Shown here one piece after another: positions 10,089 through 64,000 of a DNA stretch of 64,000 nt. The notes beneath the pieces were generated by a model that was given only the letters and a program-made list of their open reading frames with translations, made no database searches and was not told where the DNA came from. Made by a program: the position numbers and the translations under genes. How positions within the stretch are numbered: the stretch's first letter is position 1; each line of letters begins with the position of its first letter. This DNA is from a virus. The stretch spans positions 32,001 through 96,000 of the IMG/VR virus record IMGVR_UViG_3300038393_001027; one strand, written 5' to 3'.

Positions 10089-10131
10089 CCCCCTCATTAC
10101 TTCCGTACACCGGGCTACTGGGGCTGTGACA
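10089..10131 (-). promoter_or_regulatory. Repeated promoter-like motif, copy 2
   Basis: TGTCACAGCCCCAGTAGCCCGGTGTACGGAAGTAATGAGGGGG. Confidence 0.75.
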
Positions 10132-12768: not shown

Positions 12769-12811
12769 CCCCCGCATTACTTACGTACACCGGGCTACCG
12801 GGGCTGTGACA
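12769..12811 (-). promoter_or_regulatory. Repeated promoter-like motif, copy 3
   Basis: TGTCACAGCCCCGGTAGCCCGGTGTACGTAAGTAATGCGGGGG. Confidence 0.75.
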
Positions 12812-17698: not shown

Positions 17699-17742
17699 CC
17701 CCCCTCATTACTCTCGTACACCGGGCCTCTGGCGCTGTGACA
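17699..17742 (-). promoter_or_regulatory. Repeated promoter-like motif, copy 4
   Basis: TGTCACAGCGCCAGAGGCCCGGTGTACGAGAGTAATGAGGGGGG. Confidence 0.75.
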
Positions 17743-19261: not shown

Positions 19262-19304
19262 CCCCCTCATTATTTCCGTACACCGGGCCTCTAGGCCTGT
19301 GACA
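19262..19304 (-). promoter_or_regulatory. Repeated promoter-like motif, copy 5
   Basis: TGTCACAGGCCTAGAGGCCCGGTGTACGGAAATAATGAGGGGG. Confidence 0.75.
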
Positions 19305-20748: not shown

Positions 20749-20791
20749 CCCCCTCATTTCTCTCGTACACCGGGCTACTGAAGCTGTGACA
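20749..20791 (-). promoter_or_regulatory. Repeated promoter-like motif, copy 6
   Basis: TGTCACAGCTTCAGTAGCCCGGTGTACGAGAGAAATGAGGGGG. Confidence 0.75.
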
Positions 20792-22069: not shown

Positions 22070-22112
22070 CCCCCTCATTATTCTCGTACACCTGCCCACA
22101 AAGGCTGTGACA
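22070..22112 (-). promoter_or_regulatory. Repeated promoter-like motif, copy 7
   Basis: TGTCACAGCCTTTGTGGGCAGGTGTACGAGAATAATGAGGGGG. Confidence 0.7.
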
Positions 22113-26135: not shown

Positions 26136-26177
26136 CTCCTCATTATTGTCGTACACCGGGCTACATGGGCTGTGACA
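26136..26177 (-). promoter_or_regulatory. Repeated promoter-like motif, copy 8
   Basis: TGTCACAGCCCATGTAGCCCGGTGTACGACAATAATGAGGAG. Confidence 0.75.
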
Positions 26178-47562: not shown

Positions 47563-49008
47563 TTAGGCGTTCAGGGCGTCGTGCATGGCGCCCGGATCGA
47601 AGCCCGGCACCCAGCCGATGTTCTTGATGACGACAAACCGCTTGGCGTTGTACACCACGGGCATGCCGAACATCAGAATCATGAAGCGCTCGGCCGCAGA
47701 GATGCGGGCCAGCGGGAGCTTCATGAGCGGGGCAAGCTGGAAGAACCGAGCGGCCTGCTCCGGATCGAAGTCACCGATCAGGCACCGCGACGTACCGGGG
47801 ATGTCGAAGTTCCGATCCACGATGACGGTCGTCGCACCCGCAGTGGCCTTGATGTCGAAGGCGTGCATGGCCTTGGTCGAACCGCCGATCAGCGAGCGGT
47901 AGACCTTGTAGTACCGGACACCCGCCGGGTTGGTGACGGTGATGGTGACCGCCTGACCAGACGCAACAGCGACGGTACCCGTGACCGGGGTAGACCAGCC
48001 CTTGGCGTTGACAGCCACGATGCTGTAGGTGTGCGTACCAGCATCGCCAGCCGCGAACTTCGAGGTAGCGTCAGCACCCGCCGTGATGGCTCCAGAAAGG
48101 GTCGGCGCAGACGGCGCCTCAGCGCTGGAAGCGCTGGTCGGGGCAACCTCGCCCTTCTGGATGAAGAGGTTGTTCTCGAAGGGGATGGTGCCATGGGCCG
48201 ATTCGTACTCCTTGATCGGAGCACCAAGCTTCCCGTTGACAGCGCCCCACGTCGCCCGGCGGAAGTTGGTGGCCGGGTCGGCGCCGTCGCCCATGACGAG
48301 GGTCGCCAGAGCGGCCTTGTCGTAGTTGTTGAAGTAGGCGACTTCCGGGGCGCCATAGCCCTTGGTGGCGATCAGGTAGGCGGCCGCCTCGAAGACGCCT
48401 TCGTTGACGAACTTACCCCGCATGTCGATGACGTGATTCGGCTCGTCACGCTCGATCTGCGCGAAGAGCCCGTCCCACTGAAGCGGATCAAGCTGGGAGT
48501 CGCCGTAGAACAGGGCGTGCTCGGTCTGCTTGAGAAGCCACGTGGTGCCGTCCTGCGACTGCTTGGTGACCATATCGCCCAGCACGTTGCGAACGAGGGT
48601 GGCGCCGAGGGTGATGCTCCGGGTAGTACCGAGAAACTTCACCATCGCGCTCCGGCGCTCCCAAGACGAGTCTTCCTCGTTCGGCAGGCCGCCGTCGATC
48701 ATAAACGGGCTGGACTTGCCACCGAAGGAGACCATGCGGTTGTACTCCTCAGTGGTGTTGTAGGCCGGACGCTTGCCCAGCTTCTTGAAGAGCTTCACGT
48801 GCCGCTCAGTGGCGAGGGAGATCTTCATGGTAGCTTCCAGCGACTGGGGGCGCAGGACGCTCATGTCGCCGCCGTACTGGCCGTAGGCCTCACCAGCCTG
48901 CCCGGTACCAAGCGCCTTGTTCAGTTCAGCCACGTTTTCGGCAGTATCGACACCCCAACCAGACAGGTTCAGGTGCCCAAACTGCTCAATCCCAAGGACA
49001 TCAGCCAT
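47563..49008 (-). CDS. Major capsid protein
   Basis: LR.QSLE..E.ALFYGDS..DGL..VID.RG..QLAP.MK.PLA..KN, Twort/SPO1-like. Confidence 0.9.
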   Translation of the reverse strand: MADVLGIEQFGHLNLSGWGVDTAENVAELNKALGTGQAGEAYGQYGGDMSVLRPQSLEATMKISLATERHVKLFKKLGKRPAYNTTEEYNRMVSFGGKSSPFMIDGGLPNEEDSSWERRSAMVKFLGTTRSITLGATLVRNVLGDMVTKQSQDGTTWLLKQTEHALFYGDSQLDPLQWDGLFAQIERDEPNHVIDMRGKFVNEGVFEAAAYLIATKGYGAPEVAYFNNYDKAALATLVMGDGADPATNFRRATWGAVNGKLGAPIKEYESAHGTIPFENNLFIQKGEVAPTSASSAEAPSAPTLSGAITAGADATSKFAAGDAGTHTYSIVAVNAKGWSTPVTGTVAVASGQAVTITVTNPAGVRYYKVYRSLIGGSTKAMHAFDIKATAGATTVIVDRNFDIPGTSRCLIGDFDPEQAARFFQLAPLMKLPLARISAAERFMILMFGMPVVYNAKRFVVIKNIGWVPGFDPGAMHDALNA

Positions 49009-49050: not shown

Positions 49051-49740
49051 TTAGAGGGAGATGCCGATGGCAGACGCCACCTGCGGGCTCAACGCGCCCG
49101 TAACCTCGTAGCGGGTTACCTCGGCAGAGTCGATCTTGCCCGCAACAGCCGCCTCGACCAGCTTGTCCGAAATCTGGGCAGGCGTCAGGCCGGAACCGGA
49201 CTGGGCGTCCTGTTGGCCGCCGATGGACTTGCGCAGAGTCTGGATTTCGCGGGTATTAACCACCGCCCGGCGCCCGGTCGGGGCCTCCGTCAGGCTCTTC
49301 AGCAGGTCGTGGACCTCAGTCATCTGGGCCTTCAGGGTCGTGTTCTCCTCCACGAGACCCTTAACCACCTGACCCACAACACCAAGGCTCTTGGCGAGAC
49401 TGATGTTGAAGCTCTTCTGGGTGTCCAGCGACTTGCTCAAAGTGGCGCTGAAGCCGTCCACCGTGTCACCAAGCTGAGTCACAAGGGCTTCAAGGAAGTC
49501 GCTGACCTCAAGAGCGGCTGGGACGTCTGCATGGGACTTGATCAGGTCGTCGGCGAAGGACTTCTCGGACTCATCGTCCTCGTCAGCCTCCTCACCAGCG
49601 CCCTCGTCCTCATCCGGCTCCCACTCCTCATCACCAGCGCCCGACTTATCGCCAGACTCCTGCGACTCGGACTGGTCACCTTCTGCAGACTTCAGAAGCT
49701 CATCAAGGCTGACATCAAGGCTCTTAGCCAGATCCTCCAT
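49051..49740 (-). CDS. Scaffold protein from an internal in-frame start
   Basis: GGAGGTG 8 nt before ATG at 49740 (MEDLAKS). Confidence 0.6.
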   Translation of the reverse strand: MEDLAKSLDVSLDELLKSAEGDQSESQESGDKSGAGDEEWEPDEDEGAGEEADEDDESEKSFADDLIKSHADVPAALEVSDFLEALVTQLGDTVDGFSATLSKSLDTQKSFNISLAKSLGVVGQVVKGLVEENTTLKAQMTEVHDLLKSLTEAPTGRRAVVNTREIQTLRKSIGGQQDAQSGSGLTPAQISDKLVEAAVAGKIDSAEVTRYEVTGALSPQVASAIGISL

Positions 49741-50631
49741 ACCTAGTTCACCTCCTGCCAGCCTTTCAGCTAGGCTTTTTAGCAAAACCGCCCGGTCGTA
49801 ACCGTAGCGGGCCGCTTCCTCTGCTACATCGGGGCTGTCAGCCAGCAAGTACAGATCGGTGGCGATCCGCTCTGGCGTGAAAGTCTCGATAGCCTTCTTC
49901 AGCCCCATGGCCCGGTGCATTCCACCCAGCCAGCGGCCAACTACCAGACGTACCCGCCGGGCAAAGTCGTTGTAGGCGGCGTTGGGGTCGCCGTCGCCTT
50001 CCAAGCTTTCCGGCATGATGGCCGCCATCCCCGCGGTGTCCAGCGAGAACTCCAGCGGGTCCTCCGTCCAGTCAAACGACTTGGCGATACGCGCCCAAGC
50101 CCCTGAATCCACCGGGTTCATGGTCAGCGCCACGTTCCGGATGATCGACTTGGTGACCCGGCCGGGGTCGTTGGGATCCCGCTTCACGGCGCCACCTTCG
50201 ATGGAGAAGCCCATCCGGCGGCTTGCGCCGGACTTTTCGAGCGTTTCCATCTGCTCGACAATCTTCTTGGTGTACTTGTGCTTGCCGTAGAGCATCCCCT
50301 TGATGAAGAAGCCCTCTGGCGTGATGCGGGCCTCCAGTGGTTCACCAACGAACTGATCAGGCTGAACGATGCCCTTTCTGTCGTGGTGCTCCCATTTGAT
50401 GTGACCCTTCTTTAGGAAGTAGCTGTAGTCAATCCCTTCAGGGACCAACTGCTCATCCTGCTCGTCCCGGCGCCCGGTGTTGGCGACGCCTTCGACGTAG
50501 ACGTTGCCCGTCACCGGATCAACGGTGGACTTGGTGATCTCAACGCCCCATACGAGGCGGTCTTCCGGGCGAATTTCGGTCGTTTCCGTCGGACTCACCC
50601 CCTGAGAAAAACATGAAACGGCCTCGCCCAT
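49051..50631 (-). CDS. Prohead protease fused in frame to scaffold protein (start uncertain)
   Basis: EG.A..D.Q.E..P.GID.SYF..G.I.WEH..GFSIEG..NVA.T.NP protease motifs; acidic/coiled-coil C-terminal half. Confidence 0.8.
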   Translation of the reverse strand: MGEAVSCFSQGVSPTETTEIRPEDRLVWGVEITKSTVDPVTGNVYVEGVANTGRRDEQDEQLVPEGIDYSYFLKKGHIKWEHHDRKGIVQPDQFVGEPLEARITPEGFFIKGMLYGKHKYTKKIVEQMETLEKSGASRRMGFSIEGGAVKRDPNDPGRVTKSIIRNVALTMNPVDSGAWARIAKSFDWTEDPLEFSLDTAGMAAIMPESLEGDGDPNAAYNDFARRVRLVVGRWLGGMHRAMGLKKAIETFTPERIATDLYLLADSPDVAEEAARYGYDRAVLLKSLAERLAGGELGMEDLAKSLDVSLDELLKSAEGDQSESQESGDKSGAGDEEWEPDEDEGAGEEADEDDESEKSFADDLIKSHADVPAALEVSDFLEALVTQLGDTVDGFSATLSKSLDTQKSFNISLAKSLGVVGQVVKGLVEENTTLKAQMTEVHDLLKSLTEAPTGRRAVVNTREIQTLRKSIGGQQDAQSGSGLTPAQISDKLVEAAVAGKIDSAEVTRYEVTGALSPQVASAIGISL

Positions 50632-50810
50632 ACCCCTGCCGACGCCCCCAGTTACGGGAGTGAGTGGATGAGGTATGAGCGGGCCGTCCATGAAGGACAC
50701 GATTGTGCCGCTGGAACCAAGATACCACAGGTGGCTAATTGTTGACAATACATCAGGAAGGAAAACCCTCAAAGATGCCCGAATTTGTGCATCAGAAGGG
50801 GGTTTCCGGC

Positions 50811-51359: not shown

Positions 51360-51391
51360 AAGAAAAACCCCGCCAGATGGCGGGGTTATTT
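51358..51391. terminator. Probable bidirectional terminator between convergent genes
   Basis: AACCCCGCCA/TGGCGGGGTT stem flanked by A- and T-rich tracts. Confidence 0.7.
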
Positions 51392-51856: not shown

Positions 51857-54800
51857 CTACCTCCTCAGCAAGATAACGTGTGCAAGGTTGCCAAAGGACT
51901 TCGCCACGGCCAGTTCCCGTTCCTTCTGGGTGAAGCCGTGCTTCTCTGCCAGCCGGGCGGCCTGCGCCTCCAACTGGTCGGCCCGGCGGTTCAGGTTCTT
52001 CTGATGGACCTTCCAAGCCTGCGTGCTGAGCATTTCCGTGTAGTTCTCGCTGACCATCTTCCGCTGTTCGGGGTCCCACACCTTGCGGGTGCGCTCCTGA
52101 TAGCGGTTCTGGGCGTTCTTCCGGACGTCAGCCGCCATCCGGGTCAGCGACTCGTGCTTGCGCCGGGCCGCTTCCACCGGGTCAGCCTTGGACGCCTTCT
52201 GGGCACCGAAGCGCTTGTGCTCGCCTGCCAGCGCCGCCTTGTAGCCCGGCCCGGCCGGAACGTCACCGACGAAGCCTTCAGCCGCTCGGGTAGCCTGCTC
52301 AACCGCTTGGATGTTGGAAACCTTGCGGTCGTGTGCGTTCAGGATGTCGTTGTGGATCGTACCCGGAAGGAAGGGTGACTCGACGGATACCGTGTTGTCA
52401 GCGCCCAGCGCCGCCCGCTTCCCCTTGGAGTCGGAGCGCCGGGTACGGGCAACCTTCTGCGCCGTCTTCTGCGGGTTCCATTCGTGGTCAAGGCTCAGGA
52501 ACAGTTGGCCTGTACCGAAGTCCTTGCCCTCCTTGGCCGCCGAAGACATGATCATAATGTTGGGGCCGTTCCGGTCGTTGAACGTAGCGGCGCCCTGATC
52601 ACGGGTCACGGCGTCATCCTCACCCGTGTAGGTGGCATGCTTCAGCTTTGGGTAGTCGCGTTGGATCTCCCGCACGACGTTCTCCAGCACCTTGGTGCCC
52701 AGCGCCACGTACTGCGACGACAGGACAATCTTCGGCGGGACTTCTGGCTGACCAGCCGCCCGGCGGTTAGCATTTAGCTCTTCAAGGGCGCCCAAGTGCT
52801 TGCGGATGCGCTCACCCATCCATTTTGCCATGGGGCTGTTCTTGTGGAGCGGTACGAACTTCTTGCCATCCATCACACCGTGGAAGCCCGTCTTGGGGTC
52901 CGTATGCAGGGCCGCCACAGCCGCCGCCTCAGCGCCTGCGTCAAGCTCGTCGCCCGCATTCTTGAGCGCCCGTGCGTACTCCGTGTGTCGATGCAGGGCC
53001 TCCCAAGCGTCTGGGGCGTTCATGAACTGCTGAAGCTTGTTCACACCAGACAGGTAGCCCGTAGCAGATGACCCAGCGGCGTTGTCATAGCCCGTTGCCG
53101 CGTCGCCGCGAAGCTTGGAAAGCTCGTTGGCGCCCATCAGGTCCTTCTCAAGCTTGAAGTACCGCTCGTAGAAGTTCTTGTGGAAGTCGTCTAGCTGGTT
53201 CAGATCCGGGGTGTACATGTTGTAGTCGGCGCCCGACTTCAACTGCTCCACCTTGGTATTGAAGTGGGGGTGAACCGGGACCTTGGCGCCGTGGAAAGCG
53301 TTCGGCTCACCCACAACACCCTCTGGCCGGGCGATGTCAGGGAACTCAACGCCCACATCCTCACCCTTGCGGAATTGGACGTACTTCGCCAGCGTCTTGC
53401 CCAGTTCCTCCATCTTGTCCGGGTGGACCCGGATGACCTTGCCGCCCTTGCGCTCGAAGAAGTTGTTTAGGAACTCCTCCTTCGAACCAAGCCCGTGCTG
53501 GCCCATCGTACCCATGTTGACGAGGTTCCAAAGCTCCGTCGGGTCGTTCTCCATCGGCGTGCCCGACAGACCCCAGACGTTCTGGACGCCCTTGGCGCCC
53601 GCCACATCCTGCAGGGCCGTACCGCGCGAGCCGTCAGGCTTCTTCAGGTTGTGAACCTCATCCAGTACCATCGTGTCGAAGTCGCCCCCGGTGAACAGGT
53701 GGGCGTTCTTGGCGAAGAAGTCCTGCGACACAACGATGACGTCATGGTCCACTGTGCTCATGTCCAGTGGAGACTTGTCACTGTGCGCCAGATAGGGCGC
53801 CCGCAGGTCCTCTTCTGGTGTCACCGTACCAAACATGCCGCCCCGGCCGCCGCTAGGACCGCCAACCACGGCGATCTTGACGTTGGTGTGTCGCTTGAAC
53901 TCCTTCAGCCAGTCCGATCGGATGCCTGACGGCGCCACGATAACGGACTTCTTCTGGGGCAGACCCGCCGCCTCAGCTTCAGCCATCTTGTCCACGATGC
54001 CCAAGACGCCTAGCTGGGTCTTGCCCGTGCCCATGCCGTGTCCAGCGACGCCACGCTTGCGGGTGCGCAGAAAGTGCACGCCCTGAAGCTGTGTGTCGTA
54101 AAACTGCTGGGTGGTCCACTTCTTGGAGTCTTCTTTGAGCAGGCGCTTGAGCGCTTCCGCCTTCTTCCCGCCCGCCTTGACGATCTCAGCAGGCTGGTAC
54201 TTGGCCGCACGCTCTTCCTTGGTCAGGAAGCCTTCCGGCCGCGACTGCTCTTCAAGGTACTTGTTGGTAACCTCGTTGGCCTTGTCGGTCAGGGTGAAGC
54301 CGCCAAAGACCTCACGGAACTTGTCGAACTGGGCCAGCGACATCTTGGCCTGCCCGTTCTTGTCCACGGGGAGCTTCAGGTCCTCCGTGAACGTCTGCCG
54401 GAAGGCCTCCGGCACATGGGCAACCAGATGATCCTTGCCCCAGTCCAGAAGCGGCAGTGAGCCAGTCAGGGTGTCACGCTTGCGCACGTGGCTAAGCTGG
54501 GCGTTGTCGGTGCTGACCTTGAAGGTTTGGTCACCAACTCGGACGCGCATAACGCCCGTCTTCTCGCCATCATGCACATATTCATGCTCGATGACGCCTT
54601 CCTGCCACTTCGACTGGCCCTTCATCCGGAAGCGGATCCCGTTGCCCTCTTCGTGGGCAACCTTCTTCATGGCCGTGGTCTTGGTCTTTCCCTCAACCAG
54701 CTTGCCATTCTTGAACAGGGCCTTTTGCTTCTGCGCCGGGTCAGTTAGATCCGCTGAATCGGCGTAGAGCATCCCATCCCATGGGCCGCCGACAACGGTT

Positions 54801-57800
54801 GGGGTCCCCAGACCGTTGAACTGAAGCTGTAGATGGTGGTGGGCGCCCTTACCAGCCTCCCACTGCGAGTTGCTGATCGTCACCCATGCTTTGCGGCCGA
54901 TCGACTGGGTGATGGCAAAGTCCAGATCAAACTGAGACTGGATCCCGTTTGGCATGGAAGACGTGTTGAGCAACTGGCGCATCACCGGGTCCGTTAGCTG
55001 ACCGTCAGCGCCTACATGGTAGGTAGCAATCCGGCCGTCCGGCATGCGCTTCTTGAAGGTGATCGACCCGTCATCGGCCACTTTGGGTACCAGATCTTCG
55101 GCCCGGCTCAGTTCCCGCTTGGCGGCCTTGCGCTGGACGTCGGCGGCGGCGTTATCCGTCTTCGACAGGACGCCGCTCCATTCATCCTCCGTCAAAACGG
55201 CCAGCTTGTGCGTGTCCTTGTCGGCGTAGTCGGCCCCGTACGCCCACTTCTCCATCAGTTCGGGGAGCATCAAGCCCTTCTTCCCGCCTGTGGTCCCGTG
55301 GACCTTATCGTAGGCCTCCTGCCCGCCCTTGGCGTCGTAGAGCATACCCAGCAGAGCGCCATAGCTCGACTCGTGCTTCGATACACCCTTGCCGCCTGCG
55401 TCATCGATGGACCAGACGTCACCCAACTGGGACGTCAAACCCTCGCCGCCCTTGGCGCCCTTGTCAGCCGCCTTACCCAGCTTGATCTCAAAGGCAACGC
55501 GCTTTCCGTTTGGCCCGGTTGCCATGTAGTAGCCGGGCGGCAGATAGCGGCGGCCTTCTTTGATCTGCTTGAAGTCGTCAGTAGAGCGGAACTGGTCCCG
55601 ATGCTCCATGAAGCGTCGCCGCAGTTCTTCCACATCGTCCGTTACGTGGGCGGTCTTGGCGTCACGTGCTGACGCCGCATCCTGCTGGGCAAGCTCTTCC
55701 CCAACATCGTCGGTCTTCTCGTGGAAGTCATGCTCGGCCCGGACCTCGCCCTCATCATCTAGCTCCTGATGCTTGCCGGACTCCGGGTTGTACCCGGAGT
55801 CTGCATCACCAGAGTCATAGAGGATGGAAGGATTGTCCCCGCCCTGAATCAGGATGTGGTGACCGCCCCATGTGATCCACGCAGAACCGGGGTTGTCCTG
55901 CAGGAGTTGCTCCGACCAAGTAAGGGCGCCTGACTTCTGGCTGAGCCGCCCCTGCTGGTCTTTCACATGGGACTCAAATCGTTGGCGGCCTGCACCACGG
56001 ACCCACTCACGCACCTTCTGGTTGCGCCGGGTCCGATCCACCGCCGACAGATGGCCGTTCGTGCCCATCGACTTCTGCAGGAAGTCAGCCGTGCTGATGG
56101 CCTTCTCCAGCAGGGAATCCGCCGGGAGGATCGGCTCGCCCAGCGTCAGGATGACGCCTTCAGCACCGTGCGCCCGTACAGTCGTCATGATGTACTCAGT
56201 TGGACCCAGCCTGTCGGCGATGGCATCCAGCGACTTGACCACGATCTGCCGGGTGGGCGCCCAGTCACAGACCGACATGTCCAGCCCGTAAGCGGCCAGC
56301 GCGTCTTCCAGATCGGACTCAAAGAGCGACTTCAGCAGGGTGTTTCCCAGCCCAAAGCCCTTCATAACCAGTTCCTTGATGTGGCTAACCGCATCAGGGT
56401 TCTTGGTCACGTAGTCCTTCAGCTTCTTCAGACCCCGGCTGTACCGCTGGCGGGCGTTGTCGTGACTGATGCCCAGCGCCTGCGCAACGGCCGGGAAGTC
56501 GATCAGTTCGGCGCTACGCATGCCAGAACCAAGTCCGTGGCGTGCCTGAATGACGGCCAGTTCGTTCTTGTCCAGCCCGGCATCGTTCAGGATGGCGTTC
56601 AGACCAGCCTTCTGCGCCTTCCGGACCTCGCCCGCCATGGCCTGCCGTTCCGTGTCGTTCTCACCCGCAACCTGCTCGTGCTTGGCGATGGCCTTGTCGG
56701 GGTGATCAGCGTCGGTCACGTTCCGGTCAAGGCTGGTCGTCTTGTTCAGGTGGTACAGTGACTCCATGGCCGCTACCTTGTCGCCCGTGGCGGTCAGGTA
56801 CTCACCGCGCTTGCCCGGCTTGAGGAGCTTGACGTCAGCCCACTCAGGCTTGTTGGCGTCCAGCCAATCCCCGATGTTCGCCCGGTTGGCCGTCTTGCCT
56901 TCCTTCTCCAGCGCTGACTTGGCCTGATGGTACATGGCAAGGGGCGCCCGAAGCTCACGGGGGAGCTTGATCTGGTCGAACATGCCGTTGCCGTAGCGGC
57001 TCATCCGCTGTTGGGCTCGGGCGATGGCGTAGTTGGAGGGGTCCCGCAGGGCCTGCAGGCGCTCCAAGTTGCCGTTTTCCTTGTTCTGGTTCCACTCACG
57101 GACGCCTTCCAGCAAACCTGTGCGGAACTCCTGCGCCAAATCGGAGAAGTAGCCTGTGTCGATGCCGCTGATCTTCTCATAGGTCTGCACGTGGTCCAGA
57201 CCCTTGGACTGCATGAACTTCTTCGCCATGTGGCGGGTCATGCCTTCCATACGGTTCACGAAGTCTTCTTCGGTCACATGTGCCAGCCTCTCGAACTGGA
57301 TGGGACCGCCTTCATACTCCCGAACCAGCCGGGGAACTTGGCGCCCGGAAGCGGTCTTTGCCATCTCGATCTTGGGGAGCCTGAAGTCACCCGAGTGCGT
57401 GCGGCCTGCGTTCTGCGCGTCGCCGAACATCTCCGCTACCTTGTCCTGCAGGGTGCCGAAGTCCTCACCTGTGGCCTCCTTCAGGTTGGCAACCTGCTGG
57501 GCGGCCTCCTGCTGGATGGTGTCGGGGGTGTTGGTGCCTTGCTTGTACTTGGCGCCCGTGCCGATGACCTTACCCTCAGCCTTCGTCCGGGTCAGCTTGT
57601 TCTCACCCGTCTTCTGGTCGCGGGTCCACGACGCGACCTCGATCGCCGGAGACTCCTCGATGCGCTTCTTCTCAGCGGCCTTGCGCTGGCGGGCGGCCGT
57701 CTTTTGGGCCTTCTCCTTTGCCGCCGCCGTGCCCTTCTTGTGCGTCTGAAGCCGCTTGGCCGTCTCCTTGCCCGGCTTCAGCGCTTCAGCGGTCACCTTG

Positions 57801-58147
57801 GCCGCCTTCTTTACGCCCTTGTCAGCGTTGACCGTCTTGGCGGCGTGCGCCTGCTTGATCTCCGTGCGCTTCGCCATGTCAGCCGGAAGCGTCTCCGGGG
57901 CGATGGTGCCGTTGGCCCGGATGTAGATGTGGTGTCCCCGCATGGTGCGCCACTCACCGCCGGGGTACTTCTGCTCTAAGTTGCTCCGATGTTGCGCTTC
58001 GATCTTAGTGGCCGGGGCTGATGCCTTCTTGACTGGGGCCGCCGCCTTCTTCGCCGGGGTCTTGGTCTTTGACGCAGATTTGGCGGGGGCCTTAGCCCCC
58101 GCCTTCTTCGCCGTGACCGCCTTCATCAGGTTGTCAGCGAAACCCAT
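51857..58147 (-). CDS. 2096-aa multidomain protein: basic N-terminus, sigma70-family sigma factor (regions 2-4), SNF2-type ATPase
   Basis: Sigma motifs DLAQE..GLLE, YA..R..RY, IKLP, SLD, region-4 HTH; SNF2 motifs GMGTGKT, DEVH, SGTPMEN, WNP..Q..R.RR. Confidence 0.85.
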   Translation of the reverse strand: MGFADNLMKAVTAKKAGAKAPAKSASKTKTPAKKAAAPVKKASAPATKIEAQHRSNLEQKYPGGEWRTMRGHHIYIRANGTIAPETLPADMAKRTEIKQAHAAKTVNADKGVKKAAKVTAEALKPGKETAKRLQTHKKGTAAAKEKAQKTAARQRKAAEKKRIEESPAIEVASWTRDQKTGENKLTRTKAEGKVIGTGAKYKQGTNTPDTIQQEAAQQVANLKEATGEDFGTLQDKVAEMFGDAQNAGRTHSGDFRLPKIEMAKTASGRQVPRLVREYEGGPIQFERLAHVTEEDFVNRMEGMTRHMAKKFMQSKGLDHVQTYEKISGIDTGYFSDLAQEFRTGLLEGVREWNQNKENGNLERLQALRDPSNYAIARAQQRMSRYGNGMFDQIKLPRELRAPLAMYHQAKSALEKEGKTANRANIGDWLDANKPEWADVKLLKPGKRGEYLTATGDKVAAMESLYHLNKTTSLDRNVTDADHPDKAIAKHEQVAGENDTERQAMAGEVRKAQKAGLNAILNDAGLDKNELAVIQARHGLGSGMRSAELIDFPAVAQALGISHDNARQRYSRGLKKLKDYVTKNPDAVSHIKELVMKGFGLGNTLLKSLFESDLEDALAAYGLDMSVCDWAPTRQIVVKSLDAIADRLGPTEYIMTTVRAHGAEGVILTLGEPILPADSLLEKAISTADFLQKSMGTNGHLSAVDRTRRNQKVREWVRGAGRQRFESHVKDQQGRLSQKSGALTWSEQLLQDNPGSAWITWGGHHILIQGGDNPSILYDSGDADSGYNPESGKHQELDDEGEVRAEHDFHEKTDDVGEELAQQDAASARDAKTAHVTDDVEELRRRFMEHRDQFRSTDDFKQIKEGRRYLPPGYYMATGPNGKRVAFEIKLGKAADKGAKGGEGLTSQLGDVWSIDDAGGKGVSKHESSYGALLGMLYDAKGGQEAYDKVHGTTGGKKGLMLPELMEKWAYGADYADKDTHKLAVLTEDEWSGVLSKTDNAAADVQRKAAKRELSRAEDLVPKVADDGSITFKKRMPDGRIATYHVGADGQLTDPVMRQLLNTSSMPNGIQSQFDLDFAITQSIGRKAWVTISNSQWEAGKGAHHHLQLQFNGLGTPTVVGGPWDGMLYADSADLTDPAQKQKALFKNGKLVEGKTKTTAMKKVAHEEGNGIRFRMKGQSKWQEGVIEHEYVHDGEKTGVMRVRVGDQTFKVSTDNAQLSHVRKRDTLTGSLPLLDWGKDHLVAHVPEAFRQTFTEDLKLPVDKNGQAKMSLAQFDKFREVFGGFTLTDKANEVTNKYLEEQSRPEGFLTKEERAAKYQPAEIVKAGGKKAEALKRLLKEDSKKWTTQQFYDTQLQGVHFLRTRKRGVAGHGMGTGKTQLGVLGIVDKMAEAEAAGLPQKKSVIVAPSGIRSDWLKEFKRHTNVKIAVVGGPSGGRGGMFGTVTPEEDLRAPYLAHSDKSPLDMSTVDHDVIVVSQDFFAKNAHLFTGGDFDTMVLDEVHNLKKPDGSRGTALQDVAGAKGVQNVWGLSGTPMENDPTELWNLVNMGTMGQHGLGSKEEFLNNFFERKGGKVIRVHPDKMEELGKTLAKYVQFRKGEDVGVEFPDIARPEGVVGEPNAFHGAKVPVHPHFNTKVEQLKSGADYNMYTPDLNQLDDFHKNFYERYFKLEKDLMGANELSKLRGDAATGYDNAAGSSATGYLSGVNKLQQFMNAPDAWEALHRHTEYARALKNAGDELDAGAEAAAVAALHTDPKTGFHGVMDGKKFVPLHKNSPMAKWMGERIRKHLGALEELNANRRAAGQPEVPPKIVLSSQYVALGTKVLENVVREIQRDYPKLKHATYTGEDDAVTRDQGAATFNDRNGPNIMIMSSAAKEGKDFGTGQLFLSLDHEWNPQKTAQKVARTRRSDSKGKRAALGADNTVSVESPFLPGTIHNDILNAHDRKVSNIQAVEQATRAAEGFVGDVPAGPGYKAALAGEHKRFGAQKASKADPVEAARRKHESLTRMAADVRKNAQNRYQERTRKVWDPEQRKMVSENYTEMLSTQAWKVHQKNLNRRADQLEAQAARLAEKHGFTQKERELAVAKSFGNLAHVILLRR

Positions 58148-58149
58148 AG

Positions 58150-59946
58150 TCAGACCCTCCTCTGCTTGCCCAATTGGGACGGATGGATGATGAAGAGGGA
58201 TTTCTGGATCCCGTTCTCACCCGTTGTCGGGTTGTAGTAGCGCTGTACACGGGCACCCGCCGCCTCATGGACCGGGCCGATGAGCAGACCGTGCGGCAGA
58301 GCCTGCTCAGCCTTGTAGATGGTCTGAGCGTTCAGGGCGCCCTGCTGGGTCTGTCCCTTGGCTTGCTTGGCGGCCTTACGTGCTTCATAGCCGCCGGATG
58401 CCCCCTGTTGGGACTTCTTCAGGGCGCCGATGTCCTTCCCAGCGGATCCCCATGGGTCGCGCTTGTAGTCAGCATCGGACGGGCGCCTGCTGGCGTCAGC
58501 CTCCAGCGCCCTCAGGAAGTTCTCCTGTGCCTGCTGATCGAAGACGAACCGGGTCCCACCCATGTGCTTGGCGCCAACCTTCTGGAAGTAGGGCGCCGTC
58601 TCCGTCATGGCGTTGATGACAACCTTCTGACCTTCTGCCTTCTCAAAGACAGCCGCCAGTAGGCGGGACCCGGCGCCCGGCTGGACGCTCTCGACCCCCC
58701 GATGACTGGGTGCCGTCTCCAGATACTCAACAACCATGCCGCTGTAGTTCTGGTCAGGATGCATCCGGCAGAAGACAAAGCCTGCCCACTCCCCACCTGA
58801 CTTCAGGCCGATGAAATGATGGGCCTGCTCATAGTGGTCCAAGCTCCCACTTGCCCGGTCGTCAACCAAATCGACCAGCGCCTTGCCGAAGTGTACTGGG
58901 TACTCCCCGGACTCTTCCCAGTCCTCCACAGCCGCGAAGATCTCGTCACCGCTGGGGTTCTCATAGAGTCCGAAGCCCTTCACCTTGTCGTAGGTTGCCA
59001 GTCGCCTACCTTGGGCGCCCTGTTGGGCACTGGAATGGCGGTTGACACCCTTACCAGTCCCGTCCTTCGGCAGGGTTTTCGGGTCGATGCCGCCTTTGCC
59101 GCCATTCACCGGGACCCGGCCCGGCCCGTCCTGTGTCCGGATGGCGCCTGCGGCGCCCTTACCTGACTGGGCGCCCGGCTTCTGCTTCAGGTCGTCATGC
59201 GTCATCATCTGACCCTCTCCGGTCGCCTGCTCTGTTTCCGGCTGGGCCGGGCCGACTTGGTTGTCAGCCGGGGCCTTCCCGTCGAACTTGGCGGCCTCCT
59301 TCTGGGGGTTGGCCGTTTTCTTAACCTGCTTCCACTCGTCTACGTTGCGGTAGGTCTCGTCGAAGATCTTGCCGTCTACCACCCACTGGTCGCCCCGCAG
59401 GCCTTCGACGAGGTAATCCCCGGCCTTGCCGTGCATGACCTCGCCGCCCCGGTTCTCCAGCGTCTTGACGGTGAAAGGCTCAGTCATCTTCTTCGCCCTG
59501 ACAACCTCACTGGGGTCCTTAAAGAACTCCTCCCAGCCGTCATCACCTACAGCAGACCCAGCCGTCTGGCCTCCGCTTCCTGCGCTCTTGTCCGGGCGAA
59601 GATCACCTGATTTCGAACCAGAAGCCATTCGACCTCCGGCCGGGGCGCCCTTGCCTTGGTCCTCATCCGGCGCTTTCTGGGCCATCGACTCTTTTTCCGC
59701 CATGCCACGGCGCCCACCCCCCGCCGACTTCAGCAGGTCCACGGTAGCCAGCGCCTTGATGACGGTCGGGGACCGCAGGTTCATGATGTGGGCCGGGATG
59801 TCAGCCCCTGCCTTCTGCAGATCCTGAATGAGCCGGGCCACAACGTGATCTAGGGCGCCCTGCTCCTCGATCGACTTCACCACAGACGGGGAACGAAGGT
59901 AGTCCACCCGCGCTTCCAGATCTGCCTTGCTCGTGCCTACGGCCAT
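58150..59946 (-). CDS. Multidomain protein with PGDYG-like and GNAT-like domains
   Basis: TLE..GKAGDYLV.G..G..W..IF.ETY; VEYLETAP..RG..GAGSRLL..YFQK.G. Confidence 0.65.
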   Translation of the reverse strand: MAVGTSKADLEARVDYLRSPSVVKSIEEQGALDHVVARLIQDLQKAGADIPAHIMNLRSPTVIKALATVDLLKSAGGGRRGMAEKESMAQKAPDEDQGKGAPAGGRMASGSKSGDLRPDKSAGSGGQTAGSAVGDDGWEEFFKDPSEVVRAKKMTEPFTVKTLENRGGEVMHGKAGDYLVEGLRGDQWVVDGKIFDETYRNVDEWKQVKKTANPQKEAAKFDGKAPADNQVGPAQPETEQATGEGQMMTHDDLKQKPGAQSGKGAAGAIRTQDGPGRVPVNGGKGGIDPKTLPKDGTGKGVNRHSSAQQGAQGRRLATYDKVKGFGLYENPSGDEIFAAVEDWEESGEYPVHFGKALVDLVDDRASGSLDHYEQAHHFIGLKSGGEWAGFVFCRMHPDQNYSGMVVEYLETAPSHRGVESVQPGAGSRLLAAVFEKAEGQKVVINAMTETAPYFQKVGAKHMGGTRFVFDQQAQENFLRALEADASRRPSDADYKRDPWGSAGKDIGALKKSQQGASGGYEARKAAKQAKGQTQQGALNAQTIYKAEQALPHGLLIGPVHEAAGARVQRYYNPTTGENGIQKSLFIIHPSQLGKQRRV

Positions 59947-59949
59947 GGG

Positions 59950-62900
59950 TTACTTCGCCCCCTTCTTGGGCTTGGCGCTGGTGGAAGATTTCTTCGTGGG
60001 TGAAGAAGTTCCCTTCTTAGTAGCCGCCGCTTCTGCCATTTCGTAGCCCGTCTTCTTCGACTTGGTAGTTTTACCCGTTGTGGCGTCTCGGATGATGGGC
60101 TTCTTACCCATTACCGAATCACCGAGAGACCCGCTTCCCTTGCCATAGAGCTTCTCCATGGCCGCCGCGCCCTCAGCCTTGATCTGTGCGTTGCGCTCGG
60201 CGTTCAGTTGGCGAGCCGTCTTGGGCTTGGCGGGAGCCTGCTCGGGCGCCGGGGCCGCCTTACCAGCCTTGACTGGGGCCGCTCCCAGATCCTGTGCCCT
60301 TACCTTGGTCCGGGCCGTCTTCGCCATCTCCGACTCAGACTTGGCCGCCGCCTTGGCGTTCTTGGCGGCCGCCCGCTCGTCAGCCGCCGCCTTGGCCTTG
60401 CTGTAGCTCTCCCGCGCCTTCGCCACGGCGCCTGCATCGGCGCCCAGCATCTCCAACACGTCAGCCACGGTCAGTTTGGAACTCACCTTGTTCGCGTCCA
60501 CAGACCCATCAGACCCGAACACGTCAGCGATGAGCTTCCCCTTGCGCTCCAGCACACTCATCTTGCGCTGGTCAATCGAGTCAGCCATCTCAAACTGCTG
60601 GTGGTGGAAGTTGCTCTCCTGCCCCTGACGGTAGCCTCGGCCCAGCCGCTGTTCCATGGCCGCCGGAGTCCACTCGTAGTCCAGATCGATGTGCATGTTG
60701 GAGTTGGCCTGCAGGTTCATGCCTTCCGTCCCGGCCTTGGTCATCAGGATGACCTTACCTTTGCCCGCGTTGAAGTCGATCTCGGCCTGATCACGGGCCT
60801 TCTTCGACGTCGATCCCTGCACATACAGGAAGTCGCTGTCACGGAAGCCATGCTCAGCCTTCAACTGCTCCTTCAGGAACTCCAGCGTCCGGGGCGACTG
60901 TCCGAAGACGATCGTGCCCTTGCCGCCCTTGTAGTTGTTCTCTTCGTTGGTACGTTCCCAGTTTGTGGCGATCTGGTCAGCCGCCTCCGTGATCTTGGGC
61001 GATGCATACCCCTTGGTCCGGATCTGCTTCAGGACGGGGTTGGCGGCCTTGATGCCCAGCCCTTCCAGCGCCTCCGGGGTGTCGATCAGCCGGGGATCGA
61101 TGGCGATCTGCTCCAGCCGCATAAGCTGGGTCAGCATGTGCATGTCCACCTTGGCGGCGCCGTCCATCCCCTGAAGCTCCTCAAGCATGGACCCGCGCAG
61201 GTTGCCGTAGAGCTTCTTCTGCGAATCGTCCATGTCCAGAACGGCCACATCATGGGTCTTGGGCGGCATGGCGATCTTCACGCGGGGATCCTGCTTCTCC
61301 AACATGAAGAAGTAGGGCGCGATGAGCTTGCGCAGGTTCTCGCGCTCGTTCCCCTTCACGCCGACGACAACCTTGGTCTCGCCGTCACCCTTCAGGTTGG
61401 GGATGGTGTCATACTGGGCAAATTTCTGCACGAAGCGCTTCTTTTCACCCAGTACACCGGGGTTCATGAACTCCATGGCCCGGTAGGTCTCGTCCAGCTT
61501 GTTCATCATGGGGGTTGCTGTCAGCCACCATGTGAACTTCGGCGACATGTGCTCGAAGGCCGCCTTCGACCGGGCGCTCTTGGGATCCTTCAGGTAGTGC
61601 GCCTCGTCGAAGATGGCGATGTCGTTCTGCAGGGCGGCCTTGATCTGGGCGCCCTCGTTGGTCATGATGGCGTAGCTCATGACCACGTAGTCAGCCTTCT
61701 TGGCCTCCTTGTACAGGCGCTTGCGCTCCTCCGGGCCGCCGTCGATCTTCACAACCTTCTTGCCGTCGAAGAACTTGTGGACCTCACGCTCCCAGCCGCC
61801 CAAACGGGACGCTGGGACCACGATGACAGTCGGACCCTTCGCCTTGCCCTCCTGCTTCAGCTTCTCAGCCGCCAGCAGACTGGTCAGGGTCTTGCCCAGA
61901 CCCGTACCGAAGCCCAGAACACCCTTCTCGATGGTGTTCAGGTAGTGCACGCCGGACCACTGGTAGCCATGAGGCTTGATGCCCTTCTTCATGGATTTGA
62001 TCTTGACCGGATCTTCCACCTGCTGGGCCAACTCGCCCGCCTTCGCCCGGTCGCCCTGTGACGTCAACTGCTTGTGCAGGGCCGGATGATCCTTCTTCAG
62101 GGCGTCCAGCGCCGACTGGTCAAAGCTGAACAGCGGGCCGAACTTATCCACCAGCCCGGCCAGTTGCTTGGCGGGGAGCATGTCACCCGGCAACGTCCAC
62201 CGGGGCTTTGGATAGCTGTCGTAGTAGGCGCCTGTCTTGGCAACGGCGTTCTTGAAGCTCCGGTGGGTCTTGTCGTTGTTGTTGTAGCCCACCATCTGGA
62301 TGCGGTAGCTTCCATTTTCGAAGCTGACCGTGGGCCGCAGGCCTCCAGCCTGCTCTTCCTCGATCTGCTTCCGCTTTTGAGCCAGCCATTCAGCCCCTGA
62401 AATACCGCCGGACGGCCCACTTGCGGCCGGGGCGCCCGGCTGGGCCGGACCACCTGCAGGCTCGCCCTTGTATGGGGGCGCCTTGGGGTCATGCCGGAAG
62501 GCGCCCTTGATGTTGTTCTTGAGCAGGTAGCCCAGTGCCTGCCCCGCATGACCGCTGTCGGTCTTGATGGGGATGTGCCAGCCGGGGCTTTCGTCATTCT
62601 CCTTCCAGACGCCGCCCATGGCCTTGATCTGGTCCTTGTGCTCGAAGGTGTTGTTCTTGGCGCCACCCGGCAGAGTCTTTGGGATCACAAGCCAGCCACG
62701 GGCGCCGAAGCCATGTTGCTTCTCAACCTGCTTCAGGATGGCCTCAACCTTGTCACCCATACCAGAGGTGTCCCGAACGGTCGCCGTGGTGCTCGATGAC
62801 GCCTCAGCCATCACCTCGCGGGCCTTCCGGGCGGCCAGCGTGTGATGCTCGTAAGTCATGCCGGGCCATGCGGTCTCGGGCACGATGCGCCCCTTGTGCA

Positions 62901-63027
62901 CGTAGACATGACGCCCGTGCATGGTCACCCAGTGTCCGCCGGGGTACTTGGATGATAGTTCCTCACTGATGCCCTTCAGCAGGATGGCGCCCGGCACATA
63001 GGTGAGACCTTTGATCAGTAGTTGCAA
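59950..63027 (-). CDS. SNF2-family ATPase with two N-terminal HARP/DUF5710-like repeats
   Basis: GTGLGKT, DEAH, TATPMMN, QRLGRGYRQGQ; KDQIKAMGGVW..W and KNAVAKTGAYYD..W. Confidence 0.88.
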   Translation of the reverse strand: MQLLIKGLTYVPGAILLKGISEELSSKYPGGHWVTMHGRHVYVHKGRIVPETAWPGMTYEHHTLAARKAREVMAEASSSTTATVRDTSGMGDKVEAILKQVEKQHGFGARGWLVIPKTLPGGAKNNTFEHKDQIKAMGGVWKENDESPGWHIPIKTDSGHAGQALGYLLKNNIKGAFRHDPKAPPYKGEPAGGPAQPGAPAASGPSGGISGAEWLAQKRKQIEEEQAGGLRPTVSFENGSYRIQMVGYNNNDKTHRSFKNAVAKTGAYYDSYPKPRWTLPGDMLPAKQLAGLVDKFGPLFSFDQSALDALKKDHPALHKQLTSQGDRAKAGELAQQVEDPVKIKSMKKGIKPHGYQWSGVHYLNTIEKGVLGFGTGLGKTLTSLLAAEKLKQEGKAKGPTVIVVPASRLGGWEREVHKFFDGKKVVKIDGGPEERKRLYKEAKKADYVVMSYAIMTNEGAQIKAALQNDIAIFDEAHYLKDPKSARSKAAFEHMSPKFTWWLTATPMMNKLDETYRAMEFMNPGVLGEKKRFVQKFAQYDTIPNLKGDGETKVVVGVKGNERENLRKLIAPYFFMLEKQDPRVKIAMPPKTHDVAVLDMDDSQKKLYGNLRGSMLEELQGMDGAAKVDMHMLTQLMRLEQIAIDPRLIDTPEALEGLGIKAANPVLKQIRTKGYASPKITEAADQIATNWERTNEENNYKGGKGTIVFGQSPRTLEFLKEQLKAEHGFRDSDFLYVQGSTSKKARDQAEIDFNAGKGKVILMTKAGTEGMNLQANSNMHIDLDYEWTPAAMEQRLGRGYRQGQESNFHHQQFEMADSIDQRKMSVLERKGKLIADVFGSDGSVDANKVSSKLTVADVLEMLGADAGAVAKARESYSKAKAAADERAAAKNAKAAAKSESEMAKTARTKVRAQDLGAAPVKAGKAAPAPEQAPAKPKTARQLNAERNAQIKAEGAAAMEKLYGKGSGSLGDSVMGKKPIIRDATTGKTTKSKKTGYEMAEAAATKKGTSSPTKKSSTSAKPKKGAK

Positions 63028-63032
63028 CGTTG

Positions 63033-63998
63033 TTACCCCCTTATGCGTTCCATACGCTTGCGCCGGGCGTAGCTTGTGTGCCCCATCGACAGGTCAGCCA
63101 GCGCCTCTTCTGGGGTCCGGGCGCCCTCGCGTACGTCCCGCGCGGCCTCCAACAACGTTCGACGGTTGCTGTTACCCAGCAAGCTGTGCACCTTAGGACC
63201 AAGCGCCCCAACGGCGTCCTGATGCAGGGCAGTCGGGCTGTTCCAGAAGTCCTTCGGGGTCCGGGCGCCCTTCAGCGTGTCCAACACGTGTTGGGCCGCC
63301 TCTTGATGCATCTGCCAGCCTTCCTTTGTCGGCAGAGGCTGGAAGTACTCGTCATCACCACTGTTTCCGACAACATGCGGCATGTCTTCAGCCTGATCAT
63401 GCAGTGCCTGCAGAACAAACTTCTTCCACGCCACCTTCTCCTTCTTAGCGGCGTCAGCCAACATGGCCCGGCCATGGGCGCCCGAAGCCTTGGCAGGCTT
63501 AACACCAGACACTGCTCCTTGAATCCGGGCAAGCAACCCCTTGGGCGACGTCGCGTCCTGTAAGAACGTCTGCAGGGATGCCAGTTCCGGATGCCCGGTC
63601 ACATGTTTAAGCGCCTTGCCCGCCGCCGCCGACACAGCCGCTACGTCCTTCATGGGTGCCCGACTGAATTCACCCAGCGCCGCATGAAGTGCTGTGGCCG
63701 TCTTCTCTGGGAGCATGTCAGCCGCGTCTGCAATGCTGGCACCCTTACGGAAGAAGGGCGATCGGGATGCCATGTGCTCCAGCGCCATGGCAAACTTGCC
63801 GTGTACAGCGGCTGGTAGGTTGGCGAAAGCCTTGTGTGCGGCCTCTTCGATCTGATGCGCATGATTGAACTGGGACTGATCCGCCTTTACCTTGGCCTCA
63901 CGGGCCTTGGCATCCTGCTGTGCCTCTGCTTCCCGTGCCTTCTGTACCTGCTCGCGGATCTTCTCAGCGACAGACTCCTTTGGTGTCTTATCAGCTTC
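63033..63998 (-). CDS. C-terminal part of a large hypothetical protein (5' end outside window)
   Basis: Frame stays open from the listed ATG at 63788 to the right edge. Confidence 0.75.
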   Translation of the reverse strand, partial: EADKTPKESVAEKIREQVQKAREAEAQQDAKAREAKVKADQSQFNHAHQIEEAAHKAFANLPAAVHGKFAMALEHMASRSPFFRKGASIADAADMLPEKTATALHAALGEFSRAPMKDVAAVSAAAGKALKHVTGHPELASLQTFLQDATSPKGLLARIQGAVSGVKPAKASGAHGRAMLADAAKKEKVAWKKFVLQALHDQAEDMPHVVGNSGDDEYFQPLPTKEGWQMHQEAAQHVLDTLKGARTPKDFWNSPTALHQDAVGALGPKVHSLLGNSNRRTLLEAARDVREGARTPEEALADLSMGHTSYARRKRMERIRG

Positions 63999-64000
63999 AG

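Follow-up and report, generated by a model that had tools for sequence, protein, structure and literature searches.

A divergent sigma-70-family module in a candidate head-cargo SNF2 polyprotein of an SPO1-related soil myophage

Phages are known to take over host transcription through sigma factors made after entry, through the injection of whole RNA polymerases, or through the injection of enzymes that modify the host polymerase. The locus considered here raises the question of whether a sigma factor might itself travel in the virion. It is an open reading frame (ORF) that runs uninterrupted for 2096 codons on the minus strand (51857–58147) of a 64,000-nucleotide stretch of DNA (hereinafter the window), corresponding to positions 32,001 to 96,000 of the IMG/VR record IMGVR_UViG_3300038393_001027. 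The record is a complete 111,151-bp virus genome with direct terminal repeats and nearly all genes on the minus strand (hereinafter G000). An initial annotation, made from the letters of the window alone, had delimited this ORF correctly and had read its product as a full sigma-70-type factor embedded in an SNF2 polyprotein, which the phage would package, cleave and inject. Our analysis points to a divergent sigma-70-family module joined to a SWI2/SNF2 ATPase, and we posit that the product is a polyvalent head-cargo protein of an SPO1-related soil myophage. For the full chain, in which the protein would be loaded, cut and ejected and its sigma part would bind the host core and read phage promoters, we put the probability at about 40%.

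The sigma-like motifs named in the annotation are all in place (aa 296–311, 336–349, 373–385, IKLP at 393–396, SLD at 471–476, and 525–576). Pfam reports a Myb_DNA-bind_8 helix-turn-helix at aa 549–577 and Sigma70_r4 with E-values of 0.014 to 0.0015 (18.5 bits versus a cut-off of 24.1), while a single-sequence phmmer search of the PDB recovered nothing useful. Against aa 250–620, the NCBIfam sigma-70 superfamily model TIGR02937 aligns over positions 4–164 of 165 (E = 5e-6; 26.1 bits versus 42.9), and RpoD_Cterm aligns in order over model positions 27–228 of 238 (up to 233 with homologues), likewise below its curated cut-off. An exhaustive search of 1.8 billion representatives returned four distant homologues of the same architecture (28–30% identity) and also a bona fide free sigma factor (E = 8e-4); no free-standing short homologue of the module was found in the homologue search. 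Each of these four homologues matches RpoD_Cterm on its own (E = 1e-7 to 3e-10), and they and the window protein each match RpoD_Cterm and/or TIGR02937 across nearly the whole model. When a profile built from six trimmed family sequences, which stem from independent assemblies, was run against all PDB sequences, the best 60 matches were all sigma factors, with Bacillus subtilis SigA at the top (E = 3e-13), matched in two stretches spanning regions 2.2–3.1 (SigA 159–263) and region 4 (SigA 297–360).

Structure prediction, which the annotation had suggested as a check, likewise favored a sigma fold. With the AlphaFold2 model of aa 250–620 (pLDDT 72.8) as a query against the PDB, Foldseek ranks nothing but sigma factors among its top 50, in alignments of about 300 columns. 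VIA-align superposes the model on sigma domain 4 chimeras with a Z-score of 10.8 and a root-mean-square deviation (rmsd) of 2.0 Å over 92 residues, and on the whole of SigA with a Z-score of about 10 over about 240 residues; the large global rmsd of the model arises because the domains pack differently in the free model and in the holoenzyme.

In known sigma factors, the D-L-x-Q motif of region 2.2 touches the β′ clamp helices, and its D, L and Q (in the context D-L-I-Q-E-G..GL) are invariant across the family. Also kept are the equivalents of Q437, R441, R588 and Q589 (Escherichia coli sigma-70 numbering throughout), the IxLP of regions 2.4/3.0, the SLD that starts region 3.2, and the pattern of regions 4.1/4.2. 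The order of domains 2, 3 and 4, with a region 3.2 linker and a region 4.2 helix-turn-helix, is that of the sigma-70 superfamily. Groups 1 and 2 (RpoD/SigA and RpoS) are further recognized by the region 2.3 aromatics (Y425, Y430, W433, W434) and regions 1.1/1.2; since both tryptophans are replaced, the tyrosine at Y430 is retained by the window protein alone and region 1.1 is absent, the module is not classed with them. As the homology is carried by the family profile and the fold, with single-sequence scores below threshold, aa ~293–580 is a true if divergent member of the sigma-70 family that comprises regions 2, 3 and 4. The earlier description of a full sigma-70-type factor thus holds for the homology of regions 2–4 but overstates the case where region 1.1, the melting tryptophans and the scores are concerned. 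A complex prediction pairing sigma domain 2 (residues 40–175 of the family profile) with E. coli β′ 220–350 scored 0.30 (mark 0.32), a value that has no bearing on binding either way.

No sigma-like sequence besides the module emerged from TIGR02937 and PF04542 scans of the whole genome, and a real sigma factor used as a phmmer query against 1169 open six-frame segments matched only the frame of the module (E = 2e-8). The module is the only sigma-like sequence in the 111-kb genome. Scans for the RNA polymerase catalytic domains PF00940 and PF00623 found none in the genome, although the PF00940 control matched no control genome, which weakens that half of the result. The genome hence does not display the catalytic domain that would mark an N4-like or phiKZ-like virion RNA polymerase, and only the specificity subunit would be delivered, with the host core doing the work.

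In the C-terminal half, as the annotation had it, an SNF2 ATPase begins near aa 1350: Pfam places SNF2-rel_dom (PF00176) at aa 1353–1598 with 61.9 bits against a cut-off of 24.9, followed by a sub-threshold Helicase_C (PF00271) at aa 1820–1905 (21.4 bits versus 23.5), and a match to phrog_62 spans aa 1316–1908 (E = 4e-38). With GHGMGTGKT, DEVH, SGTP and AQKxARxxRS, it retains motifs I, II (DExH), III and VI of the SWI2/SNF2 ATPases; its matches to the RapA, DrmD and DpdE models are all weak. Between the two halves, the region of aa 740–1340 has no PDB match at E ≤ 1e-3, only weak NusG-, eS4- and Tudor-like rows, and no usable ESM Atlas match. The non-structural region of the genome encodes a further SNF2 helicase of 716 aa (10316–12466, minus strand; phrog_62, E = 1e-83), which makes three SNF2 paralogues in this genome.

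The placement of the ORF among head genes, also proposed earlier, is borne out, as a MuF-like gene precedes it and the genes for the prohead protease and the capsid follow. Along the minus strand, the large terminase and portal genes are followed by three small ORFs, a 516-aa MuF-like protein with a ParB-like C-terminus, a 123-aa ORF, a 633-aa ORF, a 1025-aa SNF2 helicase and a 598-aa ORF, and then by the sigma–SNF2 ORF. Thereafter come an 83-aa ORF, a 69-aa zinc ribbon and a strong bidirectional terminator, past which lie the head and tail genes, namely those for a protease–scaffold fusion, the major capsid protein, and the neck, sheath and tail. The order portal, MuF-like protein, tagged large protein (see below), polyprotein, protease–scaffold and capsid is kept in the related loci L008 and L009 and in four complete IMG/VR relatives (G002–G005), which have the same gene in the same position; L007, a shorter locus, covers this order from MuF to sigma. 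The Pfam domain LPD1 (large polyvalent protein-associated domain 1) is found in the upstream neighbor in L008 and L009 (E = 1e-23 and 2e-16, respectively), in L008 with an additional weak ParB_N match. An LPD1/portal/MuF neighborhood is the basis on which polyvalent proteins were defined (PMC5512222), and the product considered here has their hallmarks, being large, of mixed activities, and encoded beside portal and MuF genes with LPD, ParB and SNF2 partners.

The architecture is uninterrupted in independent assemblies (P0002, P0004–P0006, G002, G003 and G005), whereas L009/G004 has the gene as two or three separate ORFs. In G004 (L016/L009), the sigma-plus-middle and SNF2 parts occupy separate frames (65812–70626 and about 71480–73462), such that the sigma–SNF2 fusion is not obligatory; a 213-aa ORF between them shows a sub-threshold NCBIfam match (E = 0.008) to the archaeal RNA polymerase subunit A″. 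As for the phage itself, its terminase and capsid proteins are 34–36% identical to those of SPO1-group Bacillus phages. The window sequence was found whole in several soil and rhizosphere metagenome runs, one of which (X4) cannot be the source sample. No prophage copy was seen in 185,579 species genomes, and GenBank phages yielded no similar DNA and protein matches only at the level of SNF2.

Two sequence signals set the large proteins of this cluster apart. One is a 16-residue tag, PGGxWxTxxGxHxY[IV], corresponding to the WxTxxGxH tag that the annotation had noticed and present in the polyprotein at aa 61–76 and again at aa 744–767. When the genome is translated in all six frames, it turns up only four times, always in the cargo gene cluster: near the N-termini of the 633-aa ORF, the 1025-aa SNF2 ORF and the sigma–SNF2 ORF, and inside the latter ahead of its SNF2 half. 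In the relatives, it heads unrelated large ORFs (LPD1/ParB proteins and a CLCA_X-domain protein) and is again internal to the polyprotein. A tblastn search of GenBank phages with the 40-aa tag found no match, nor did the shared form PGGxWxTxxGxHxYI match any Pfam family in the scanned proteins.

The other signal is a hydrophobic-x-K-[SAG]-hydrophobic motif, which averages 2.1 per 1000 aa over 137 minus-strand ORFs and reaches 20.9 in the protease–scaffold protein and 24–26 in the scaffolds of L008 and L009. One instance, EL.K/ALGTG (a slash marks the predicted cut), is conserved 19–31 residues into the capsid proteins of three phages, and others end the short N-terminal leaders of the cargo ORFs. 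The cluster of putative protease sites that had been noted after the sigma module is real as a pattern: five of the nine motifs in the 2096-aa ORF fall within aa 594–693, directly after sigma domain 4, which none of 2000 shuffles reached. Four of these five sites are conserved at 25–30% identity, and like clusters follow sigma domain 4 in L007, L008 and L009. Cargo, capsid and scaffold of the phage thus have the motif in common, and in the cargo it stands at termini and domain joints, as in head proteins processed in the prohead. This pattern fits trimming by the prohead protease inside the prohead, with the cuts themselves being predicted from the motif.

By virtue of the helices that follow sigma domain 4 (56300–56420, aa ~584–620), the model aligns over 92 of 96 residues of the sigma4/β-flap-tip chimeras 7kug_D and 8d5v_B, and these helices superpose on the flap tip such that, in the model, they occupy the position of the flap-tip helix. 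Two K/[SG] motifs lie in these helices, where the model confidence is 64–79. It may be that this segment masks the flap-binding face in cis until the prohead protease cuts.

As promoters for the sigma factor, the annotation had pointed to eight copies of TGTCACA-N14-GTGTAC. The window indeed has seven exact copies (0.12 expected) and one with a 15-nt spacer. In the whole genome, GTCACA-N15-TGTAC is found 15 times, always on the coding strand, and 14 of these copies lie in the non-structural half. The element can be read as a −35 box GTCACA, a 17-nt spacer ending in TG, a TACGAG-like −10 box and an A/T-rich stretch, followed by a conserved GAGGGGG that opens a GC hairpin devoid of a U-tract, and then by a Shine-Dalgarno site and a start codon; the transcripts would probably begin with a 5′ hairpin. 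The exact window motif TGTCACA..GTAC is absent from all four complete relatives, each of which has a homologous element with the same geometry, a TGTA(T/C) core and a GAGGG start with hairpin, but its own upstream box. These boxes can be set beside the recognition helices of sigma domain 4: G000 pairs GTCACA (15 copies) with SHDNARQRYS, G002 TAGAAT (6 copies) with TSKWVDNRIT, G004 TAGAAT (7 copies) with DGKWVANRRA, G005 TAGAGA (10 copies) with GEKWVDKWVR, and G003 GTCCAC (4 copies) with TKDWVNKYYR. G002 and G004 share both the TAGAAT box and KWVxNR in the helix, although G004 is closer to G005 by its capsid and terminase. All five complete genomes hold both the sigma cargo gene and a multi-copy element of sigma-type geometry with a genome-specific −35 box. 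Because the relatives keep both, it is plausible that the elements are read by the sigma module; an activator of the MotA kind that acts with host sigma-A would account for the promoters just as well. None of the relatives has an element close to the cargo operon, whereas G000 has a degenerate copy just downstream of the portal gene and ahead of that operon; a repeat search of the L008/L009 head region found no promoter-like repeat family.

Taken together, we propose that the ORF product would be loaded into proheads and cut there by the prohead protease into two pieces, one of ~590 aa with tag and sigma module and one of ~1390 aa with tag and SNF2 ATPase, both of which would be ejected with the phage DNA. 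The sigma piece might then bind the host core RNA polymerase via the conserved region 2.2 and domain 4 and steer it to the promoter class that heads the non-structural gene cassettes, with the SNF2 piece acting either on the incoming DNA, in protection or translocation as in DarB-type proteins, or on the polymerase in a RapA-like manner. That the sole sigma-like gene sits in the structural block, with the elements heading cassettes that would have to be read earlier, supports delivery, and the retention of promoter-contact regions, which would be superfluous in a decoy, supports a role in initiation. The broader proposition, that SPO1-related soil phages of a whole clade carry a sigma factor in the capsid within a protease-gated polyprotein and inject it, and thereby capture the host core for phage promoters from the first moments of infection independently of host sigma and of new protein synthesis, is more tentative, and we regard it as doubtful.

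The proposal of an injected initiation factor has to be weighed against several adverse observations, most of which would also suit a module that is cargo of a different kind, i.e., a decoy that takes up the host core or competes with host sigma and so shuts off the host, or a tether that holds the cargo to phage DNA by its helix-turn-helix domains and Lys/Ala-rich tail, with the promoters read by host sigma-A and an early phage activator. The MotA/AsiA system of T4 is a phage activator of this type, which works with the host sigma at middle promoters. In region 2.3, the W433 equivalent is A and the W434 equivalent is an invariant R, such that DNA melting may differ from that by housekeeping sigmas. 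In the relatives, the −10 boxes (TATAGT, TATGGT) are sigma-A-like, and the genome-specific upstream box resembles an activator box. In a scan for the sigma-A consensus with at most two mismatches, coding-strand promoters are in excess in G002 (7 versus 1) and G004 (12 versus 2), and one lies upstream of the protease–capsid operon in each of G002, G004 and G005, so that host sigma-A can start infection there and the special class could be a middle one. The co-variation of sigma and box, which the annotation had wished to see, is mixed: the agreement of G002 and G004 is offset by G000 and G003, with similar boxes (GTCACA and GTCCAC) but unlike recognition helices, in a comparison of only five genomes. 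Furthermore, the sigma region is fast-evolving, at 47–55% identity where the capsid proteins are 65–78% identical, as is usual for conflict proteins, and a Lys/Ala-rich linker is present. What makes a decoy or tether rather unlikely in our view is that regions 2.4, 3.0, 3.2 and 4.2, including the equivalents of Q437, R441, R588 and Q589, are kept across ~20% identity, none of which a decoy needs. Moreover, consensus sigma-A promoters are absent from the coding strand of G000 (2.1 expected by chance), the TACGAG of its −10 box suits sigma-A badly, and no MotA- or AsiA-like gene was found among the ~35 ORFs scanned against families (~25 of them outside the head cluster).

The module could also direct the polymerase as a newly made middle or late factor, perhaps as the uncut polyprotein, with packaging incidental if it occurs at all. 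To our knowledge, all phage sigma factors (SPO1 gp28 and gp34, T4 gp55, phiEco32 gp36) act after synthesis in the cell, and the degenerate G000 element ahead of the cargo operon would allow self-reinforcing expression. Yet the relatives lack such a copy, the gene stands in the structural block downstream of terminase and portal in all five genomes with the elements heading non-structural cassettes, early-type small genes among them, and the tag, leader and protease-type motifs that bracket the sigma part have no role in a purely cytoplasmic factor; we hence consider this improbable. That the ORF is a fusion artefact or a decaying gene, whose likeness to sigma is that of a generic helix-turn-helix, might be argued from the single sequence falling under every curated sigma cut-off and from the split gene in L009/G004. 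This is very hard to reconcile with the uninterrupted architecture in independent assemblies, the whole window sequence in several soil metagenome runs, and a match that covers domains 2, 3 and 4 in order.

Several known systems resemble parts of what we propose. The closest in architecture are the polyvalent proteins, with P1 DarB as the archetype (PMC5512222), which like the present one are giant multi-domain proteins encoded beside portal and MuF genes, with SWI2/SNF2 domains and LPD1/ParB neighbors. They are predicted to enter the host with the DNA, and a role of the DarB-type SNF2 in protecting or translocating the incoming DNA has been proposed (PMC5512222). That survey mentions the word sigma zero times, and the protein described here has a sigma module and no methylase. 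The virion polymerase of N4 and the multisubunit ones of phiKZ, SPN3US and AR9, which the prohead protease cuts (PMC4496689, PMC7598289, PMC10052503), place transcription machinery in the capsid for early transcription, as we propose here, and SPN3US-type head proteins are reported to be trimmed by the prohead protease (PMC10052503, PMC7411985). Free phage sigmas, such as SPO1 gp28 and gp33/34, T4 gp55, phiEco32 gp36 and those of jumbo phages (PMC7824862), share the homology and the redirection of the host core, but are small separate proteins made early or midway in infection. The survey of jumbo phages (PMC7824862) treats phage sigmas only as free proteins, unlike the module in this 2096-aa head protein. 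T4 Alt and the internal proteins have a capsid targeting sequence, a leader removed by the prohead protease (PMC9026906, PMC5512222), as the motif suggests here; the cut motif is x-K/[SAG] in our case and L/I-x-E in T4. While Alt re-aims the host polymerase at early phage promoters by enzymatic modification, a stoichiometric sigma would here replace that of the host.

The nearest hint of a virion-associated sigma is Gp10 of phage Arash (PMC10585845), a free protein detected by mass spectrometry in particles along with polymerase subunits and a helicase. The same preparation held ribonucleotide reductases and RNA ligases, which makes carry-over possible. Neither cargo signals nor a function were shown for Gp10. 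Besides this, our literature search brought up no account of a sigma that is packaged in virions or part of a polyvalent protein, in line with the annotation, which knew of no described equivalent. Polyvalent head cargo and virion-borne takeover are both known, and a sigma domain is unreported in that role. If true, the delivery of only the specificity subunit would constitute a fourth, very economical route of takeover, and polyvalent cargo would then include transcription initiation factors as well. The common tag and the cut motif would amount to an address code by which virion cargo could be read off and predicted from the sequence alone, and the paired sigma modules and promoter boxes of the five genomes would offer a natural set for the evolution of sigma–promoter specificity. 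The coordinates of the individual features are collected in Table 1.

Table 1. Features of the sigma–SNF2 locus and of the promoter-like elements (window coordinates; A2 and A4 denote alignments).
Feature	Position	Strand	Basis
Sigma–SNF2 polyvalent head-cargo candidate, 2096 aa	51857..58147	-	Architecture kept end to end in P0002, P0004–P0006, G002–G005 homologues
Candidate propeptide, N-terminal leader aa 1–9, ends LMK/A	58121..58147	-	Hydrophobic-x-K-[SA] leader end at N-terminus in all family members
Tag 1 YPGGEWRTMRGHHIYI, aa 60–76	57920..57970	-	G63, G64, W66, T68, R70, G71, Y75, I76 invariant in A2
Low-complexity Ala/Lys/Thr-rich linker, aa 77–250	57398..57919	-	Composition A32, K26, T20 in 174 residues
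Predicted sigma domain 2, regions 2.1–2.4 and IKLP, aa 293–398	56954..57271	-	Region 2.2 D-L-x-Q invariant
Predicted sigma domain 3, aa 399–445	56813..56953	-	SigA profile match extends through region 3.1; fold matches
Region 3.2-like acidic linker with SLD, aa 446–515	56603..56812	-	Low model pLDDT; D of SLD invariant
Predicted sigma domain 4, regions 4.1–4.2 helix-turn-helix, aa 516–580	56408..56602	-	Sigma70_r4, Myb_DNA-bind_8, VIA, profile match
Candidate prohead-protease-site linker, five hydrophobic-x-K-[SAG] at aa 594, 604, 636, 680, 690	56066..56407	-	Four sites kept in A2
Tag 2 WSEQLL..PGSAWITWGGHHILI, aa 743–768	55844..55921	-	Modelled as helix and three-stranded sheet
Conserved middle region, aa 769–1340	54128..55843	-	Conserved in A4; model pLDDT 59
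SNF2 ATPase, aa 1341–1910: GHGMGTGKT, DEVH, SGTP, motif VI	52418..54127	-	Motifs invariant in A2
C-terminal tail, terminal AVAK/SFG motif aa 2079–2086	51860..52417	-	Sequence reading
598-aa neighbor, enriched in K-[SAG] motif	58150..59946	-	Weak PGDYG (E 6e-6) and GNAT acetyltransferase (E 1e-3) matches
1025-aa SNF2 helicase, tag near N-terminus	59950..63027	-	Tag search
633-aa ORF, C-terminal part; tagged N-terminus just outside window	63033..64000	-	Tag search
Cargo-operon-ending bidirectional terminator-like hairpin	51366..51387	.	9-bp GC stem, T-runs on both strands
Prohead protease fused to scaffold	49051..50772	-	K-[SAG] density, 20.9 per 1000 aa vs genome mean 2.1
Major capsid protein, ELNK/ALGTG near N-terminus	47563..49008	-	Motif conservation
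Promoter-like copy	26151..26177	-	Motif scan
Promoter-like copy	22086..22112	-	Motif scan
Promoter-like copy	20765..20791	-	Motif scan
Promoter-like copy	19278..19304	-	Motif scan
Promoter-like copy	17716..17742	-	Motif scan
Promoter-like copy	12785..12811	-	Motif scan
Promoter-like copy	10105..10131	-	Motif scan
Promoter-like copy, 15-nt spacer, no hairpin consensus	6011..6038	-	Motif scan

Phage phiKMV Rac acts on the α subunit of the polymerase, and a packaged acetyltransferase, if encoded by the 598-aa ORF between the two SNF2 cargo genes, would recall it. The 69-aa zinc-ribbon ORF (51386–51595, minus strand) closes the cargo operon; between the terminator and the protease–scaffold ORF, whose annotated TTG start is doubtful, lie ~600 nt with no convincing gene. 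The MuF-like protein (phrog_4728, phrog_115) fused to a ParB-like nuclease-type C-terminus is at L003:3322–4872 on the minus strand (genome 97322–98872), and in the relatives the ParB-like piece is found within the LPD1 protein instead. Between its cargo genes, L007 has an ORF of 364 aa (L007:6840–7934, plus strand) whose choline-binding repeats are PspA/PspC-like (E = 6e-27) and hint at a Gram-positive host for that phage.

The sigma-A-type sites ahead of the protease–capsid operons of the relatives are at G002:15238, G004:73906 and G005:88968, with sequences such as TTGACT-17-TATATT and TAGACA-17-TAAAAT with TG; a weaker TTGTCA-18-TATCTT precedes the protease–scaffold operon of G000 at 50719–50748 of the window. 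A palindrome, GGGCGCCC, is present in 94 copies in G000, where about 7 are expected. CTTCSGAAG is similarly abundant in G002, G004 and G005 (107, 145 and 127 copies, respectively; 1–2 expected), and G003 has 50 copies of CTTCWGAAG and 29 of CTTCSGAAG (1.4 and 0.5 expected). These palindromes are found within coding DNA, directly ahead of several promoter elements and in some of the 5′ hairpins, and are perhaps sites for a DNA-binding or DNA-modifying protein. The ends of G000 (1–60 and 111090–111151, outside the window) consist of tandem 31-bp units, each containing GGGCGCCC. Finally, the ribosome-binding regions of G004 and G005 are very uniform, with AAGGAGCTGGT, a gap of 4–6 nt and the start codon, in 21–23 exact copies per genome.

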